Of a stretch of 44,609 nucleotides of DNA, positions 1,491-33,027 are shown piece after piece. The notes below the pieces were generated by a model. It was not told the origin of the DNA and did no database searches. It saw only the letters and a program-made list of their open reading frames with translations. Within the stretch, counting starts at the first letter, position 1; every line of letters begins with the position of its first letter. The stretch lies in the IMG/VR virus record IMGVR_UViG_3300045988_011059, positions 1 through 44,609 of that record; one strand, written 5' to 3'. This stretch comes from a virus (lineage: Duplodnaviria > Heunggongvirae > Uroviricota > Caudoviricetes). A program made the position numbers and the translations under genes.

Positions 1491-1661
1491 ATGTTCAGTG
1501 ACATCAACGCGGCAATCGAAGAAGCAATATGGCGTCGTTACAACGGCGAGCAACAACGGCACTTCTGCCTGGTGCAACGTGGGAACATGATTGCCGTAGT
1601 GCAGGACCGCGATAACAAATATCCGAATGCGATGTGGACAACGAGGAATTTCGTAGGATGA
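1491..1661 (+). CDS. Hypothetical small protein (56 aa)
   Basis: Hand-translated; stop overlaps the next ATG (ATGA at 1658-1661). Confidence 0.4.
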   Translation: MFSDINAAIEEAIWRRYNGEQQRHFCLVQRGNMIAVVQDRDNKYPNAMWTTRNFVG

Positions 1662-1894
1662 TTACCAGCATTCCGAACCTGATTAAAGAATACGGCACGA
1701 TGGCCGAGACATGCCGTCAAACCGGCATCAACGAAATGACGATTGCGAAGTACAGCAAAGACGTTGATTGCGAGCGCCACGTAATTTATAACAACCGTCT
1801 GATGACGCACGTTAAGACAAGCCCGGTGTTATTCACGCGACGCGGTATCACTAAAACCGAGCAACGCATTGCTAAAGAGGAGAGTGGGGAATGA
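1658..1894 (+). CDS. Hypothetical protein, possible helix-turn-helix
   Basis: ORF track frame from ATG 1658; a GINEMTIAKYSK stretch resembles an HTH. Confidence 0.5.
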   Translation: MITSIPNLIKEYGTMAETCRQTGINEMTIAKYSKDVDCERHVIYNNRLMTHVKTSPVLFTRRGITKTEQRIAKEESGE

Positions 1895-5695: not shown

Positions 5696-6739
5696 ATGAG
5701 CTTACTTACATCCCTAATAAGCCACCAGATATGGCTACAACGAGCCGCTTCCGGTGAAGTGAAAGACCTCACACCATTCATTCAGGAGATGCGAGACGAA
5801 ATCAAACGGCAGGTTCTGCTATTCGGTGACGACGGTCGCAGCACTGCGCGACTGAATAAACTGTTACGCGACCTCGAAGAAGCACTGGCAGGACTTACCG
5901 GTGACTGGCAAACAAAACTGACAGAAGACCTTAAGGAACTGGTGGCATATGAGGCTGAGTGGAACGTAAAGACGCTGACGGCTAACGTTAACGCGGAATT
6001 TGTTACGCCTACCGCAGAACAGGTGTGGGCCGCTGCCGAGTTTCAGCCATTATCGTTAAGTGACAAGCCTGTTGATTTCACGAAGCTGATGTCTGGCTGG
6101 GGTGAAACGGAGGTCGCGCGCCTGGTAACTGGCGTTAAGATGGGTTTCGTACAAGGCCAAACCACACGGCAGATTGTTAAAAATGTCGTAGGCGCTGGTG
6201 GACTGGCGGACATTTCAGAACGAAACGCTGCGACGGTAATCCGCACCGCTCTGTCTCACGTATCCAACGAAGCACGTAACGAGACGTACCGCCAGAACGA
6301 CGACATCATCGAGAAGTACGAGTGGGTGTCGACGCTGGACAGCCGTACCAGTACGATTTGCAGGGCCAGAGACGGGATGACGTGGGAAATCGGTAAAGGG
6401 CCGATGCCACCCGCCCATCCGAACTGCCGGTCGTGCACGGCTCCGGTAATCAGTTCCGAGTTCGACTTCCTTGATAAAGGTGCAAAACGCGCGGCTAAGG
6501 GTGCGGATGGCGGTACTCAGGTAAGCGCAGACACCACTTACTACGAGTTCCTGAAACAACAACCCGCATGGTTTCAGGACCAGGCGCTCGGCCCGGTGCG
6601 AGGTAAGATTTTCCGCAACAGCGGTATATCGCCGGAAGAGTTTCGCGTAATATCTGTAGATGGTTTCGGGAATCCGCTCACGCTTAAGCAGATGGCGGAA
6701 CTCGATAAACGTGTTGCTGATTATCTGAAAGGGGATTAA
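5696..6739 (+). CDS. Head morphogenesis / minor capsid protein
   Basis: About 350-aa ORF after the portal; start could be ATG 5663 or 5696; call mostly positional. Confidence 0.6.
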   Translation: MSLLTSLISHQIWLQRAASGEVKDLTPFIQEMRDEIKRQVLLFGDDGRSTARLNKLLRDLEEALAGLTGDWQTKLTEDLKELVAYEAEWNVKTLTANVNAEFVTPTAEQVWAAAEFQPLSLSDKPVDFTKLMSGWGETEVARLVTGVKMGFVQGQTTRQIVKNVVGAGGLADISERNAATVIRTALSHVSNEARNETYRQNDDIIEKYEWVSTLDSRTSTICRARDGMTWEIGKGPMPPAHPNCRSCTAPVISSEFDFLDKGAKRAAKGADGGTQVSADTTYYEFLKQQPAWFQDQALGPVRGKIFRNSGISPEEFRVISVDGFGNPLTLKQMAELDKRVADYLKGD

Positions 6740-7200
6740 TGATGGGCTTTTTCAAAGTAACTGATGTACCGTCGCGTCGCGTAGTTCAGTACGCCCGAGT
6801 GTCTGGTTCTGGTGAGAACGTGGTATTTATCGAAGATGAAAGTGTACTTGGTACACCAGTAGACGACATGCCGTTTGCAGATAAAACCGGTATTGCGCTG
6901 CCGGCGGCGGGTATGCTTTATGAAATTCCGTATCTGGCTGATGCTGGCGACGTGTATTTCTCGGTGCAACCGAAAGACACAGAACTGGCAGACGGCAGCG
7001 CAACTATCACGGTCGAAGTTAAGGCTGGTAAAGCGCCGTATGCTCTGACCTGGTACAAAGATGGTAAGGAAGTTGTAAACGCACCCGAAGAGGCTTTGTC
7101 TCTTACGGTTAACGCGGCAGGCGAATACTTCGTTAAAGTTACCGATGCCGATGGTGTAGAGGCCGTCAGTAAAGCGGCGAAGGTCACTAAGCCTGAATAA
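6739..7200 (+). CDS. Ig-like domain protein (capsid-associated?)
   Basis: C-terminal segment YALTWYKDGKEV...GEYFVKVTDADG is typical of a bacterial Ig-like beta-sandwich. Confidence 0.55.
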   Translation: MMGFFKVTDVPSRRVVQYARVSGSGENVVFIEDESVLGTPVDDMPFADKTGIALPAAGMLYEIPYLADAGDVYFSVQPKDTELADGSATITVEVKAGKAPYALTWYKDGKEVVNAPEEALSLTVNAAGEYFVKVTDADGVEAVSKAAKVTKPE

Positions 7201-7203
7201 ACT

Positions 7204-7225
7204 AAGGCCCCGAAAGGGGCTTTTT
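7204..7225 (+). terminator. Rho-independent terminator
   Basis: AAGGCCCCGAAAGGGGCTTTTT hairpin plus T-run. Confidence 0.7.
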
Positions 7226-7254
7226 AGCGCCTGTTATTATTCCAGTTATTCCTC

Positions 7255-7305
7255 CTAATTGTAAATGTTGGAATAAACTATTCGAATAGTTGACTTTTCA
7301 CTAAA
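7255..7305 (+). promoter_or_regulatory. Putative regulated promoter: ATGTTGGAATAA box, palindrome ACTATTCGAATAGT, then TTGACT
   Basis: Read directly; ATGTTGGAATAA recurs at 8045-8056 upstream of the scaffold gene. Confidence 0.35.
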
Positions 7306-7542
7306 AATGTGATAAGCTCCACCTGAGCTTGTGAAGTATGAACAAGCGACCGCGGCGCGGGCAGGTAACGGAGCGGGACGTAAGTCCTGAGTGTAGTTAC
7401 GCTGACGCGTTCGGAAGGGCCATACTCTATTGCTTGTGTAAAAAGGAACGGGTTTACTGAGATTACGCCGTTTCTATGTTTAAATGATAAGGACTAGCGC
7501 CCCGCTTTATGGCGGGGCTTTACTTATCGAGAAAGGAGAAAC

Positions 7543-7929
7543 ATGAATCTTAAAGCAACTGTCGTAGCAGGGGCATGTTTCATCATCCTGTTATATGCCC
7601 ACGGCTACTATCAATACCGCATCGGCTGGAACGAAGGCCGGGCGAATCTCGTTTCGCAGCAACAGCAGAAAGCACAGGCTGCGTTAGCGAAGAAAACACA
7701 ACGGCAGCAGCAGGATGAATCGAAGGCCGCAGCCGCTGACAACGAAGGCAAGACGAAATCAGAGGTGATCACCCGTGAAGTCGTTAAGTACATTAAAACG
7801 CCTGGTCGCAGCGTGTGCACTTTTGACCCTGAGCGCGTGCAGCTCAAGTCCCGCGCCGTCGCAAATGCCAATTCCATCCCCGGATACGACGATGATGCAG
7901 CCGCCGTGCAAACTGGCGGCACCAAGTAG
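7543..7929 (+). CDS. Rz-like inner-membrane spanin
   Basis: N-terminal transmembrane helix (VVAGACFIILLYA), Q/A-rich coiled-coil region, with an o-spanin embedded in the +1 frame. Confidence 0.7.
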   Translation: MNLKATVVAGACFIILLYAHGYYQYRIGWNEGRANLVSQQQQKAQAALAKKTQRQQQDESKAAAADNEGKTKSEVITREVVKYIKTPGRSVCTFDPERVQLKSRAVANANSIPGYDDDAAAVQTGGTK

Positions 7930-8038
7930 CGACGCGGACGAGGATTTAGCTATCGACGTTCAGAACGCTGAATGTGTACGGCAACTGAGACTGAAAGTGT
8001 TCATGTTGCAGGACTACGTGAGGAATATTCTGGAATAG
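7775..8038 (+). CDS. Rz1-like outer-membrane lipoprotein spanin
   Basis: Signal peptide with lipobox LSAC, proline-rich mature region; starts inside the Rz gene and extends past it; GTG start with AGAGG RBS. Confidence 0.7.
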   Translation: MKSLSTLKRLVAACALLTLSACSSSPAPSQMPIPSPDTTMMQPPCKLAAPSSDADEDLAIDVQNAECVRQLRLKVFMLQDYVRNILE

Positions 8039-8120
8039 TTGCCTTGCATGTTGGAATAATTTATTCTTGACATGTAAATCCGGGTGGCCCGGATTCCAAC
8101 GTCCAGGGGACATACTGACT

Positions 8121-8822
8121 ATGAATCGTTTTTTACGTTATCCGTTCCAGGAAGAAGCTGGGGCAGAAGATAAAGCCGGTGGCGGTGACGCGCCGAAAAT
8201 GTTCACCGCCGAAGAAGTTCAGGCGCTGATTGAGAAAGAAGTCGCCGGGCTTAAGGCCAATCAGGAAGCATTGCTGGCGGAGAAGAAAGAAGCCGCTCGC
8301 AAAGCAAAAGAGGCCGAAGAAGAACGGCAGCGCGCACACCAGGAGGCGTTAAAAGCCGCAGGTAAGATGGACGAGTTCGAAAAGACGATTCGTAGCCAGT
8401 ATGACCCGGTGTTAGCCGAGAAAGATGGCCGCATCTCCAGAATGGCAGAGCGCATCCTCGGCAGCGAACGTAAAGCGGTGTTAGGCTCTTTCGCGGGTGA
8501 CTTTATTACCCCGGAAGCAGTGGACATCCTTGCGCCGTTCGTTAAGACTGAGTTCGAAGGCGATGATGTGGTTACTAAGTTTGTCGGCGCAGACGGCAAC
8601 GTAATCACGACTGACCCGGAACAGTTCCGCAAATACCTGCGCGAACACAAAGCGTTTTCGCATTTGATTAAAGCAAATGCAGCTTCCGGCGGCGGGGCTT
8701 CCGGTAGCAAAGGCGGCGGGGCCGCACCAGCGTTTAAAGACATGAGTGAAGCAGAGCGTTTAGCACTGTATAAATCGAACCCTGCCGAATTTGAACGGCA
8801 ACTTAAAGCCCTGAGGAAATAA
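8121..8822 (+). CDS. Scaffolding protein
   Basis: Highly charged, alanine-rich helical protein immediately upstream of the major capsid gene. Confidence 0.65.
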   Translation: MNRFLRYPFQEEAGAEDKAGGGDAPKMFTAEEVQALIEKEVAGLKANQEALLAEKKEAARKAKEAEEERQRAHQEALKAAGKMDEFEKTIRSQYDPVLAEKDGRISRMAERILGSERKAVLGSFAGDFITPEAVDILAPFVKTEFEGDDVVTKFVGADGNVITTDPEQFRKYLREHKAFSHLIKANAASGGGASGSKGGGAAPAFKDMSEAERLALYKSNPAEFERQLKALRK

Positions 8823-8824
8823 TA

Positions 8825-9874
8825 ATGGCAATTACCACTATCGGCGATATCGTAACTGGCAACATCCCGGTCCTGGCGTCTTATATGACCGAGGACCCGG
8901 TAGAAAAAACCGCGTTTTTCCAGTCTGGTATTCTGTCCCCGACTCCATACGCTGCCGAGATTGCCCGCGGCTCGTCCAACATCGCTAATATTCCTTTCTG
9001 GAAAGCGATTGACACTTCTATTGAGCCGAACTACTCGAACGACGTATACCAGGACATCGCTACCCCGCGTAATGTCCAGACCGGCGAGATGATGGCGCGC
9101 GTAGCTTACCTGAACGAAGGTTTTGGCCAGGCTGACCTGACCGTTGAACTGACCAGCCAGAACCCGCTGCAATCTGTGGCTTCTCGCCTGGATAACTTCT
9201 GGCAGCGTCAGGCACAACGCCGTCTGATTGCTACCGCGCTCGGTCTGTACAATGACAACGTAGCTGCTACCGATGCTTACCACGAGCAGAATGACATGGT
9301 AATCGACGTGTCCTCTACTCTGGGCTTCGATGCAGGCGCGTTCATCGACGCTACCCAGACTATGGGTGATGCCCTGATGGGCAACGGCGGTGAAGTGCTT
9401 GGCGCTATTGCGATGCACAGCTTCGTTTATGCGCAGGCCCGTAAGCAGCAGCTTATTGACTTCATCAAGAACGCTGACAACGACACCCTGTTCGCCACCT
9501 ACCAGGGCTACCGCGTGATTGTTGATGACAGCATGACCGTAGTCGGTACTGGTGGCAGCCGTAAGTTCATCTCCATCATCTTCGGCAACGGCGCTATTGG
9601 TTACGGTGAAGGTTCTCCGTCCAACCCGCTGGCCTATGCGCGCGAAGAGTCTCGCGGTAACGGTGGTGGCGTCGAAACCCTGTGGACACGTAAGACTTGG
9701 TTGCTGCACCCACTGGGCTACAGCTTCACCAGCGCGGTGATCACCGGCAACGGCACCGAGACTACCCCGCGCTCCGCTTCCTGGCAGGACCTGGCGAACG
9801 CCTCCAACTGGAACCGTGTTGTTGACCGTAAGCATGTACCGATTGCCTTCCTGGTAACTGGTGTTGGGTCTTAA
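8825..9874 (+). CDS. Major capsid protein
   Basis: 349-aa ORF after the scaffold with strong expression signals; call is positional, no search run. Confidence 0.75.
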   Translation: MAITTIGDIVTGNIPVLASYMTEDPVEKTAFFQSGILSPTPYAAEIARGSSNIANIPFWKAIDTSIEPNYSNDVYQDIATPRNVQTGEMMARVAYLNEGFGQADLTVELTSQNPLQSVASRLDNFWQRQAQRRLIATALGLYNDNVAATDAYHEQNDMVIDVSSTLGFDAGAFIDATQTMGDALMGNGGEVLGAIAMHSFVYAQARKQQLIDFIKNADNDTLFATYQGYRVIVDDSMTVVGTGGSRKFISIIFGNGAIGYGEGSPSNPLAYAREESRGNGGGVETLWTRKTWLLHPLGYSFTSAVITGNGTETTPRSASWQDLANASNWNRVVDRKHVPIAFLVTGVGS

Positions 9875-16728: not shown

Positions 16729-16756
16729 AATTATTTCCTCAGTAAGTTACAGGTGA

Positions 16757-32998: not shown

Positions 32999-33027
32999 AC
33001 TATAATAGCTAACTATTCAGGTGTCAA
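32999..33027 (-). promoter_or_regulatory. Sigma70-like promoter TTGACA-N17-TATAGT (minus strand)
   Basis: Reverse complement TTGACACCTGAATAGTTAGCTATTATAGTT; spacer carries the GAATAGT motif. Confidence 0.55.

Follow-up and report, generated by a model that had tools for sequence, protein, structure and literature searches.

In phage lambda, the late leader consists of the promoter PR′, a 194-nt ‘6S’ transcript and the terminator tR′, which is read through with the help of Q. The put elements of phage HK022 are cis-acting processive antiterminator RNAs made of two adjacent stem-loops of ~70 nt, and the genes of late activators, RinA for example, often lie immediately ahead of those for packaging. 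We have analysed a locus that recalls these systems in a Kagunavirus-like siphophage of the subfamily Guernseyvirinae, represented by a DNA of 44,609 nucleotides (IMG/VR record IMGVR_UViG_3300045988_011059; hereafter, the window), in which a gap of 317 bp at positions 7226–7542 directly precedes the gene for the i-spanin Rz. As judged from comparison of related sequences, the RNA of this gap is a structured non-coding RNA, the base pairs of which are maintained by compensatory substitutions on one strand. On balance, and without strong conviction, we favour the reading of the gap as a self-contained regulatory cassette for the spanin genes, which would combine a regulated late promoter with a cis-acting leader or attenuator RNA.

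In layout, the lambdoid PR′-6S-tR′ late leader appears to be the closest analogue. Both loci have a promoter (a putative one in the window), a non-coding transcript of ~200 nt and a terminator-like hairpin directly before lysis genes, with structural genes downstream. The lambda-type geometry, i.e., a terminator ~200 nt downstream and then lysis genes, is present in the window, but the hairpin loses its U-tract and its terminator character in sister clades. The systems also differ in that the RNA body is highly structured and conserved here, while we know of no conserved fold described for the lambda 6S body, and in that only the spanin genes follow, without holin and endolysin, which are encoded elsewhere in the genome, away from Rz/Rz1. 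No Q-like antiterminator was found among ten small early proteins scanned against Pfam and PHROGs, nor in the annotation of phage Bas73, and no conserved TAnnnT-like element of the lambda pause type follows the predicted transcription start (7336–7346 is deleted in the Jerseyvirus type). In common with the HK022 put RNAs, the stacked hairpins are promoter-proximal, contain internal loops and precede a terminator and the genes to be expressed, and no dedicated protein antiterminator is evident. This likeness is a pure analogy: one 65-nt three-helix hairpin plus others are present here, and no put-type match was returned in the Rfam scans. The element exists, is structured, does not code for protein and forms a new family. 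As to kind, it falls among the familiar phage small RNAs or regulatory leaders that are placed under a regulated late promoter.

The RNA is ~205 nt long and comprises a 5′ hairpin, a 65-nt three-helix hairpin and a hairpin just ahead of the Rz ribosome-binding site, with the following features:

7327–7347, plus strand: helix P0, the 5′ hairpin (GCTTGT, 9-nt loop, ACAAGC)

7350–7414, plus strand: irregular 65-nt hairpin of 23 pairs, formed by helices P1-P2-P3, capped by a GUAA tetraloop and interrupted by the internal loops GG/A and GGAG/AGUGUA

7415–7485, plus strand: 3′ half of the RNA, where the Kagunavirus and Jerseyvirus types share several sequence blocks (AAGGGCC at 7415–7421, CTATTGCTT at 7427–7435, AGATTACGCCGT at 7460–7471 and ATGTTTAAA at 7477–7485)

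7499–7527, plus strand: hairpin ahead of the ribosome-binding site, eight pairs, seven of them G-C, then TTTACTTAT; terminator-like in the Kagunavirus type

7533–7545, plus strand: Shine-Dalgarno sequence AAGGAG and ATG of Rz, the right edge of the cassette

An alignment of 48 distinct upstream regions revealed a diverged homologue of the RNA in Jerseyvirus-type phages. With covariance models of the fold, Kagunavirus-type loci scored 110–162 bits and Jerseyvirus-type loci 35–41 bits (E-values of 1e-8 to 6e-7), always at the same place; a model (R1) built from Kagunavirus-type sequences alone sufficed to recover the Jerseyvirus-type loci. Between the two versions, helices were replaced while pairing was kept. 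In P0, four of six pairs changed on both sides (GCUUGU/ACAAGC became ACGCU/AGCGU), and the Jerseyvirus type has ACGCT-TTC-AGCGT at the same position. Compensatory changes affected 10 of the 23 pairs of P1–P3: one P1 pair changed from C-G to U-A, P2 from CAGGUAAC/GUUAC-CUG to UCGCG/CGCGA, and P3 occurs as CGGGAC/GUCCUG, GGGCG/CGCCC or CGGUGC/GCACUG. Altogether, both sides differed in 14 of 29 pairs when the Kagunavirus and Jerseyvirus versions were compared; 96.8% of alignment cells were paired, versus 27–42% with the partners slid by 1–3 columns, and none of 500 shuffles reached the observed values. The intermediate sequences L005, L021 and L031 carry independent compensatory changes in P2 and P3. 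The plus strand folded at −72.5 kcal/mol (z = −2.45), and the minus strand reached a z-score of −1.66; the fold is specific to the plus strand because of tandem G-U pairs in P1. A reading made earlier from the sequence alone (the sequence-only reading) had pointed to hairpin potential in a GC-rich stretch at 7350–7420, which indeed folds, at 7350–7414, into the long irregular hairpin, and had suggested an RNA folding and covariance search; this search supported the fold by compensatory changes and returned no Rfam family at threshold.

In the 3′ half, no helix common to the Kagunavirus and Jerseyvirus types was found; the Jerseyvirus type can form AUAUUG-CUUU-CAGUAU, with a single U-G to C-G change, and this helix is absent from the Kagunavirus type. 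A long-range pairing AGUAUG/CAUACU was rejected, as changes in CAUACU are uncompensated. RNAalifold predicts a closing helix between the 5′ and 3′ ends, which depends on how the ends of the clades are aligned, and this alignment is doubtful; a possible 5′–3′ pairing with the region before the Shine-Dalgarno sequence occurs in minimum-free-energy folds only.

Upstream of the RNA, we have identified a putative promoter, PA, behind a cluster of short boxes:

7237–7252, plus strand: direct repeat of TTATTCC in two copies, 9 bp apart (GGAATAA in reverse complement), at which the conserved cassette has its left edge

7260–7276, plus strand: TGTAAAT box overlapping the ATGTTGGAATAA box, with the conserved core GGAATA at 7270–7275

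7277–7290, no strand: palindrome ACTATTCGAATAGT, with TATTC and GAATA half-sites abutting the −35 hexamer

7290–7318, plus strand: putative promoter PA, with −35 TTGACT (7290–7295), a 17-nt spacer and the extended −10 TGaTAAGCT (7310–7318)

The TTGACT box, already noticed in the sequence-only reading, matches the sigma-70 −35 consensus at five of six positions, and the −10 TAAGCT at three of six, with TGn in front; transcription would start near 7325. Position, spacing, TGn and TAnnnT are kept in three clades, namely the Kagunavirus (TGcTAAGCT), Jerseyvirus (TAGACT/TGtTACGCT) and L132 (TGGACT/TGATAACCT) types. Sub-consensus hexamers at a conserved position, flanked by conserved repeated boxes, lend comparative support to the earlier suggestion of an activator-dependent promoter.

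Five GAATA/TATTC half-sites lie upstream of PA, within 7237–7290. At the TTATTCC repeats, the sequence TATTCCAGTTATTCC shows little or no variation within the Kagunavirus and Jerseyvirus types; a third type has TATTCCAATTATTCC. The 12-mer ATGTTGGAATAA, reported before at 7265–7276, is found exactly there but reads AATTCAGGAATAC in the Jerseyvirus type, where TGTAAAT and GGAATA alone are retained. Its second copy does exist before the scaffold gene, at 8048–8059 rather than at 8045–8056 as given earlier. Recurrence of an exact 12-mer from the gap within 2 kb was borderline (107 of 2000 shuffles). The 14-bp palindrome, which had also been singled out, is present but neither unusual nor a conserved functional unit: the window holds two such palindromes versus ~2.7 expected, and it is lost in the Jerseyvirus type (TTTATTCAAAAAGT) and in the L132 type. 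By contrast with these chance levels, GGAATA-N(1–25)-GGAATA gave three matches, all in the gap and the region before the scaffold gene, versus 0.10 expected (0 of 100 shuffles), and GAATAGTTG(A/C)CTT is common to the palindrome region and to 8033–8045 before the scaffold gene. As the alignments read, the conserved units are GGAATA/TATTC cores, plus TGTAAAT, and not the full 12-mer or the palindrome, which are both specific to the Kagunavirus type. A minus-strand promoter-like match (TTTACA, 18 nt, AATAAT with TG in front; 7265–7236, and 950–921 in L041), formed by conserved TGTAAA and ATTATT boxes and conserved in the Jerseyvirus type, was judged incidental to the AT-rich boxes because it faces a bidirectional terminator ~15 nt away and is lost in phages that carry a moron at this place.

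The same boxes recur at a second putative promoter, PB, before the scaffold gene:

8022–8095, plus strand: sister region before the scaffold gene, with GGAATA at 8022, 8032 and 8053; nearly invariant in Kagunavirus, Jerseyvirus and Cornellvirus-like types

8039–8067, plus strand: putative promoter PB, with TTGCCT (8039–8044), 17 nt and TATTCT (8062–8067); sub-consensus

8077–8095, plus strand: hairpin AAUCCGGG-UGG-CCCGGAUU, the stem base of which covaries (AAUC/GAUU versus ACAC/GUGU)

1634–1894, plus strand: gene that closes the early rightward block and immediately precedes the packaging genes; encodes a small NinH-like protein of the helix-turn-helix kind

The sister region is nearly invariant across clades even over the last Rz1 codons. 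GGAATA clusters were found in the window only at PA and PB, with the same GAATAGTTGnCTT −35 context at both, and the boxes are conserved across the examined clades except for L147/AH01 and the Klebsiella type. Two weak promoters with dense, shared and conserved sites form the pattern expected for dependence on a common regulator. Among 39 non-structural proteins of the window compared with four complete genomes, only the 1634–1894 product tracks the GGAATA boxes: it is present in Bas73 and vB_SenTO17, and absent from Pantoea phage AH01, which has GGAATA boxes at neither promoter, and from Klebsiella phage VLCpiS11a, which has TTGCGAG/TTGCA boxes instead. Depositors labelled its homologues as NinH-like, and tblastn retrieved 533 phage records, mostly of Escherichia and Salmonella phages, including Kagunavirus, Jerseyvirus-type and Cornellvirus-like ones; no NCBIfam match was obtained. 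The protein is the sole candidate found for a PA/PB regulator and may serve as a lead. As in Fis-type activation, multiple AT-rich sites lie upstream of and abut the −35 of a weak promoter in a phage that encodes a NinH-like helix-turn-helix protein. The GAATA half-sites do not appear to match the Fis consensus, and we know of no role of lambda NinH in late transcription. Lambda NinH itself is a dimeric DNA-binding and DNA-bending Fis mimic (PMC7166090).

The hairpin of the sister region, ~30 nt before the scaffold gene, keeps a (U/A)GG triloop in every clade examined and lacks a U-tract; distant relatives have GCGGC-(A/U)GG-GCCGC in its place. It may act as a 5′-end stabiliser or as a translational operator for the scaffold and capsid genes.

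The link of the RNA to the spanin genes follows from the neighbourhood of the gap:

6739–7200: Hoc-like Ig-domain head protein, left neighbour of the gap

7206–7226, plus strand: intrinsic terminator (stem GCCCC/GGGGC, loop GAAA, then TTTTT), which closes the terminase-portal-head operon

7543–7929: Rz (i-spanin), right neighbour of the gap, overlapping Rz1

7775–8038: Rz1, spanin gene overlapping Rz

8121–8822: scaffold gene, downstream of Rz/Rz1

8825–9874: major capsid gene, after the scaffold gene

The terminator also reads as such on the minus strand, and the CPT annotation of phage Sciku has a terminator at the homologous place. The distance from the last hairpin of the RNA to the Rz ATG is 24 nt, too short for another promoter, and many relatives have a reverse-strand moron between the upstream operon and the cassette. 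Because of the upstream terminator, the 24-nt spacing and the separating moron, Rz/Rz1 must be transcribed through the RNA.

In the window, the hairpin at 7499–7518 with TTTACTTATC passes a terminator scan. Position 5 of its stem covaries (C-G in 27 sequences, G-C in seven, A-U in one and U-A in one). The apex GC-UUUAxG-GC is kept across genera and the lower stem is swapped with matching changes (CCCC/GGGG versus GGGG/CCCC; GUGGGG versus GUAGGG), which suggests an element that is specifically recognised and not just any terminator. The apex CGCUUUAAGG resembles, loosely at most, the boxA of nut-like boxA/boxB sites. The stem CCCCGC/GCGGGG resembles a type I-E CRISPR repeat; a CRISPR-repeat mimic was nevertheless ruled out, given that substitutions at stem position 5 are free but compensated and that neither the loop nor the flanks agree. 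Neither a known aptamer class nor a mutually exclusive pairing, as in riboswitch-like regulators, was found.

The cassette has sharp mosaic borders. Relatives L049 and L036 are ~40% identical to the window left of 7243, 87–98% over 7243–7542 and 63–65% from 7543 onwards; these steps place the borders at the first TATTCC box (7243) and at the Rz start codon (7543), where the fall is exactly from 95–98% to 63–65%. Conversely, in L031 and L021, the scaffold gene is 97–100% identical to that of the window, and parts of the RNA only 67–83%. A moron (a reverse-strand ORF of 68 aa) is inserted in many relatives exactly left of the TATTCC box, where mosaic breakpoints also end. Across 35 IMG/VR relatives with this version, the RNA had a median pairwise identity of 97%, compared with 92% in Rz and 93% in the first part of the scaffold gene. 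A blastn search with only the gap as query retrieved 182 phage records, 180 of them at 90–99% identity, and 347 records, mostly of Escherichia Kagunavirus and Salmonella Jerseyvirus (Guernseyvirinae), matched the 1-kb stretch around the gap at 60–96% identity.

From the sequence anatomy, conservation, RNA structure, non-coding status and cassette borders, as shown by the analysis, we infer promoter activity, transcript ends, attenuation and the identity of any binding factor as follows. The upstream head operon would end at the 7206–7226 terminator. One DNA-binding regulator probably turns on both PA and PB late, a step proposed because the same half-sites and the GAATAGTTGnCTT −35 context occur at both. 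Transcription from PA at ~7325 would then produce a structured non-coding leader of ~205–220 nt (P0, P1–P3 and the hairpin before the ribosome-binding site), and in the window phage the last hairpin with its U-rich tail would act as a leaky terminator or attenuator. The output of PA would be a short stable RNA plus a read-through Rz/Rz1 mRNA, with the conserved fold serving as a platform where a protein, a nuclease or RNA polymerase could set the amount, translation and timing of the spanin message.

A number of observations weigh against this model. The alignment behind the pair counts was fitted to the model, so that the numbers lean toward structure, and the covariation comes mainly from two clades plus a few intermediates. 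A simple consensus promoter scan does not call PA, with its −10 of only three matches in six. The U-rich tail is confined to the Kagunavirus-type hairpin, and the Jerseyvirus, L132 and L147 homologues fail the scan that the window hairpin passes; since these hairpins are not terminator-like, attenuation cannot be the function across the family. An alternative antiterminator pairing found no support, as the stem variants of the hairpin (C-G, A-U and U-A) are not accompanied by matching changes in P1. The NinH-like link rests on two lineages, and the 1634–1894 product scored 25.8 bits against Pfam NinH (PF06322; E = 9.8e-6), below the cut-off of 29.8. Recombination moves the cassette without regard to Rz, as would also be expected of an autonomous RNA gene. 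Finally, the single Kagunavirus RNA-seq paper found does not resolve the region.

The main rival, to which we attach an appreciable but clearly smaller probability, is a stand-alone gene for a trans-acting small RNA of ~200 nt, with PA at one end and the hairpin terminator at the other; the targets of its conserved unpaired 3′ blocks would be RNAs or proteins of the host or of the phage, and read-through into Rz would be incidental. The order of promoter, structured RNA and terminator-like hairpin is the one expected, the RNA is more conserved than the flanking genes and is exchanged as a sharp-bordered cassette independently of the Rz allele, one relative (L130) has a tRNA-Met gene in the same slot, and conserved blocks without a conserved helix in the 3′ half resemble seed regions. 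However, complementarity to the phage's own genome does not exceed 11 nt, which is the chance level, no similarity to E. coli sequences exists, the hairpin has no U-tract outside the Kagunavirus type and, in the absence of another promoter for Rz, the RNA would be part of the spanin mRNA in any case. We favour a cis-acting leader, attenuating in the Kagunavirus type, over a trans-acting small RNA. The sequence-only reading had likewise allowed for a small RNA, and strong covariation, strand specificity and the lack of ORF conservation support a small or structured RNA here.

An RNA processing or stability element is rather improbable. Here P1–P3 would be an RNase III-type site, and the 5′ and last hairpins would protect a processed spanin message, by analogy with T7 early and late mRNAs. 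Like the RNase III hairpins of T7 and lambda, which occur in phage leaders or between cistrons, this hairpin is irregular and spans about two helical turns, and conserved asymmetric internal loops interrupt its duplex. At both PA and PB, only a few nucleotides separate the predicted 5′ end from a hairpin, and the last hairpin is conserved even where a terminator role is impossible. The resemblance to T7 and lambda is a functional analogy, and this reading leaves unexplained the conserved single-stranded blocks and hairpin apex, which are found here and not at the T7 and lambda sites.

A DNA-level site, be it a pac site, a recombination site or an origin of replication with GGAATA iterons, is highly implausible. 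Such a site, like the packaging or replication function suggested earlier, could draw on the palindrome and on repeated short boxes on both sides of Rz, but the G-U pairs of the helices would be A-C mismatches in the opposite strand, folding is better for the plus strand, the boxes adjoin −35 hexamers, the palindrome is neither conserved nor unusual by chance, the element always stands directly before the Rz start, and 220 nt of conserved downstream sequence would be left unexplained.

Equally remote is a small protein gene of 36–40 aa over the RNA:

7338–7460, plus strand: 40-codon ORF, not a gene; frame, ATG and stop are not conserved

It is the sole ORF of at least 25 aa in the gap, which has no ORF of at least 60 aa on either strand and which is, from 7200 to 7543, the longest gap between plausible genes in the late region (runners-up ~200 nt), as had been noted before; the earlier discounting of the ORF, then counted at roughly 39 codons, was right. 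The ATG-initiated ORF is intact in most Kagunavirus-type sequences, and a 36-aa ‘hypothetical protein’ over P0–P3 is annotated in GenBank records of Sciku (CPT_Sciku_007), Bas73 (Bas73_0007), ORH_001 (CDS0038) and others. Against a gene, four lineages are frameshifted (it shrinks to nine codons in L005, L020 and L027, and is truncated to 17 in L007), the frame is altered in L021, the ATG is missing in L031 and all Jerseyvirus-type sequences, the stop of the window differs from that of most relatives (36 codons), and variable sites are distributed by codon position as 13:15:10, without an excess at third positions, and changes compensate RNA helices instead. The 36-aa annotation thus appears to indicate a mis-annotation of the RNA.

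As a whole, the observation made in the sequence-only reading holds with small coordinate corrections; from its interpretation, the promoter in need of an activator and the small or structured RNA stand, and the packaging or replication site does not. A bolder extension of the cis-acting leader reading, which we regard as speculative and improbable as it stands, would make the RNA a new class of phage riboregulator that renders RNA polymerase or the ribosome competent for spanin expression. It could be a put-like cis antiterminator or a docking site for a phage factor recognising the GC-UUUAxG-GC apex and, together with a Fis-like activator of the NinH family on the GAATA boxes, could form the late/lysis timing switch of the Guernseyvirinae.

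Database searches gave no known relative of the RNA. No match at gathering level was obtained with Rfam 15 in the whole window; at E-values up to 10, the region 7150–8150 gave terminator-like or chance fragments only, far below thresholds. The window holds no tRNA or tmRNA. Among seven relatives searched against Rfam, the sole match was a tRNA in L130. Host mimicry and descent from a prophage were rejected because blastn against 5,426 E. coli genomes found no match. When 185,579 bacterial genomes were scanned with a pattern, 81 matches were obtained versus ~190 estimated by chance, only one of which scores with the covariance model. This sequence (L362; NZ_JACVEL010000048.1, Taishania pollutisoli, Bacteroidota, 738 bp) is a Jerseyvirus fragment that extends from the last part of the Hoc-like gene through the RNA into the first part of Rz, and is almost certainly a contamination. 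In IMG/VR, the core RNA pattern was found in Guernseyvirinae-like contigs plus six chance matches only; the promoter box TATTCCARTTATTCC was swamped by chance matches there and is uninformative. Transcript ends of Logan contigs with this Rz were not informative, and our literature searches returned nothing on this RNA, on the GGAATA boxes or on the mechanism of late transcription in Guernseyvirinae.

Among phages of E. coli and Salmonella, the Guernseyvirinae (Kagunavirus, Jerseyvirus and Cornellvirus) belong to those that are most frequently isolated for use in therapy and biocontrol, and several hundred genomes in the searched phage collection match the locus. Two putatively co-regulated promoters, a candidate activator and a covariation-supported RNA before the spanin genes offer a testable handle on late and lysis timing. 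The RNA is a candidate new family, with seed alignments A3 and A4, and would correct a recurring annotation error, namely the 36-aa ‘hypothetical protein’ of several examined GenBank records. Being compact and portable, with sharp mosaic borders, the cassette could serve as a regulatory part for phage engineering.

A second promoter class occurs elsewhere in the window. TTGACA-N2-TGAATAGT-N4-CTATTAT was found at 16755 (plus strand) and at 33018, 35760, 35804, 39260 and 41038 (minus strand), before early genes and the tail operon, with a near-palindromic operator AATAG-N6-CTATT between −35 and −10. The motif was reported in the fBC-Eco01 paper as a ‘phage RNA polymerase promoter’ (PMC9825357); an RNA polymerase is listed in none of the annotated genomes of the group that we examined. 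The moron likewise carries a TGAATAGT-type promoter motif beside its 68-aa ORF and stands after the Hoc-like terminator, both in L002 (Bas73; 1579–1870) and in many Kagunavirus loci.

All examined Guernseyvirinae relatives with Rz at this locus have a non-coding stretch of 290–500 nt, ended by a hairpin, directly before Rz, and the modules within it differ. L132, vB_SenTO17 and phiEap-2 keep the GGAATA-box promoter and the GCGCGGAAGGG motif. In Cornellvirus-like phages and AH01, TTGACA precedes a perfect TATAAT by only 8 nt (a non-canonical spacing), and the hairpins are GNRA-capped; Klebsiella phages have TTGCGAG boxes in this stretch. On the more distant genera, the covariance model gave matches at the right place that were not significant (E ~5). 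These more distant versions are positional analogues with partial motif sharing, their homology being unproven.

Other contents of the slot between the Hoc-like and scaffold genes were observed as well. L130 carries there a tRNA-Met (CAT) gene at 666–743. L158 has at 735–1518 a promoter-like TTGCAA, 17 nt, TAGTAT, followed by ~600 nt without a convincing gene and without an Rfam match, and by a strong terminator (GCCCTCC..GGAGGGC plus T7), after which a full holin-endolysin-Rz/Rz1 cassette follows; this arrangement of a promoter-like site, ~600 nt and a strong terminator before holin, endolysin and Rz is again like PR′-6S-tR′ of lambda. In L121, L122 and L138, and in VLCpiS11a and 37P2 of Klebsiella, GGAATA gives way both before Rz and before the scaffold gene to TTGCA boxes and to repeated TTGCGAGT boxes, among them the palindrome ACTCGCAAAATTTTGCGAGT, which suggests a regulator of other specificity acting at the same two promoters.

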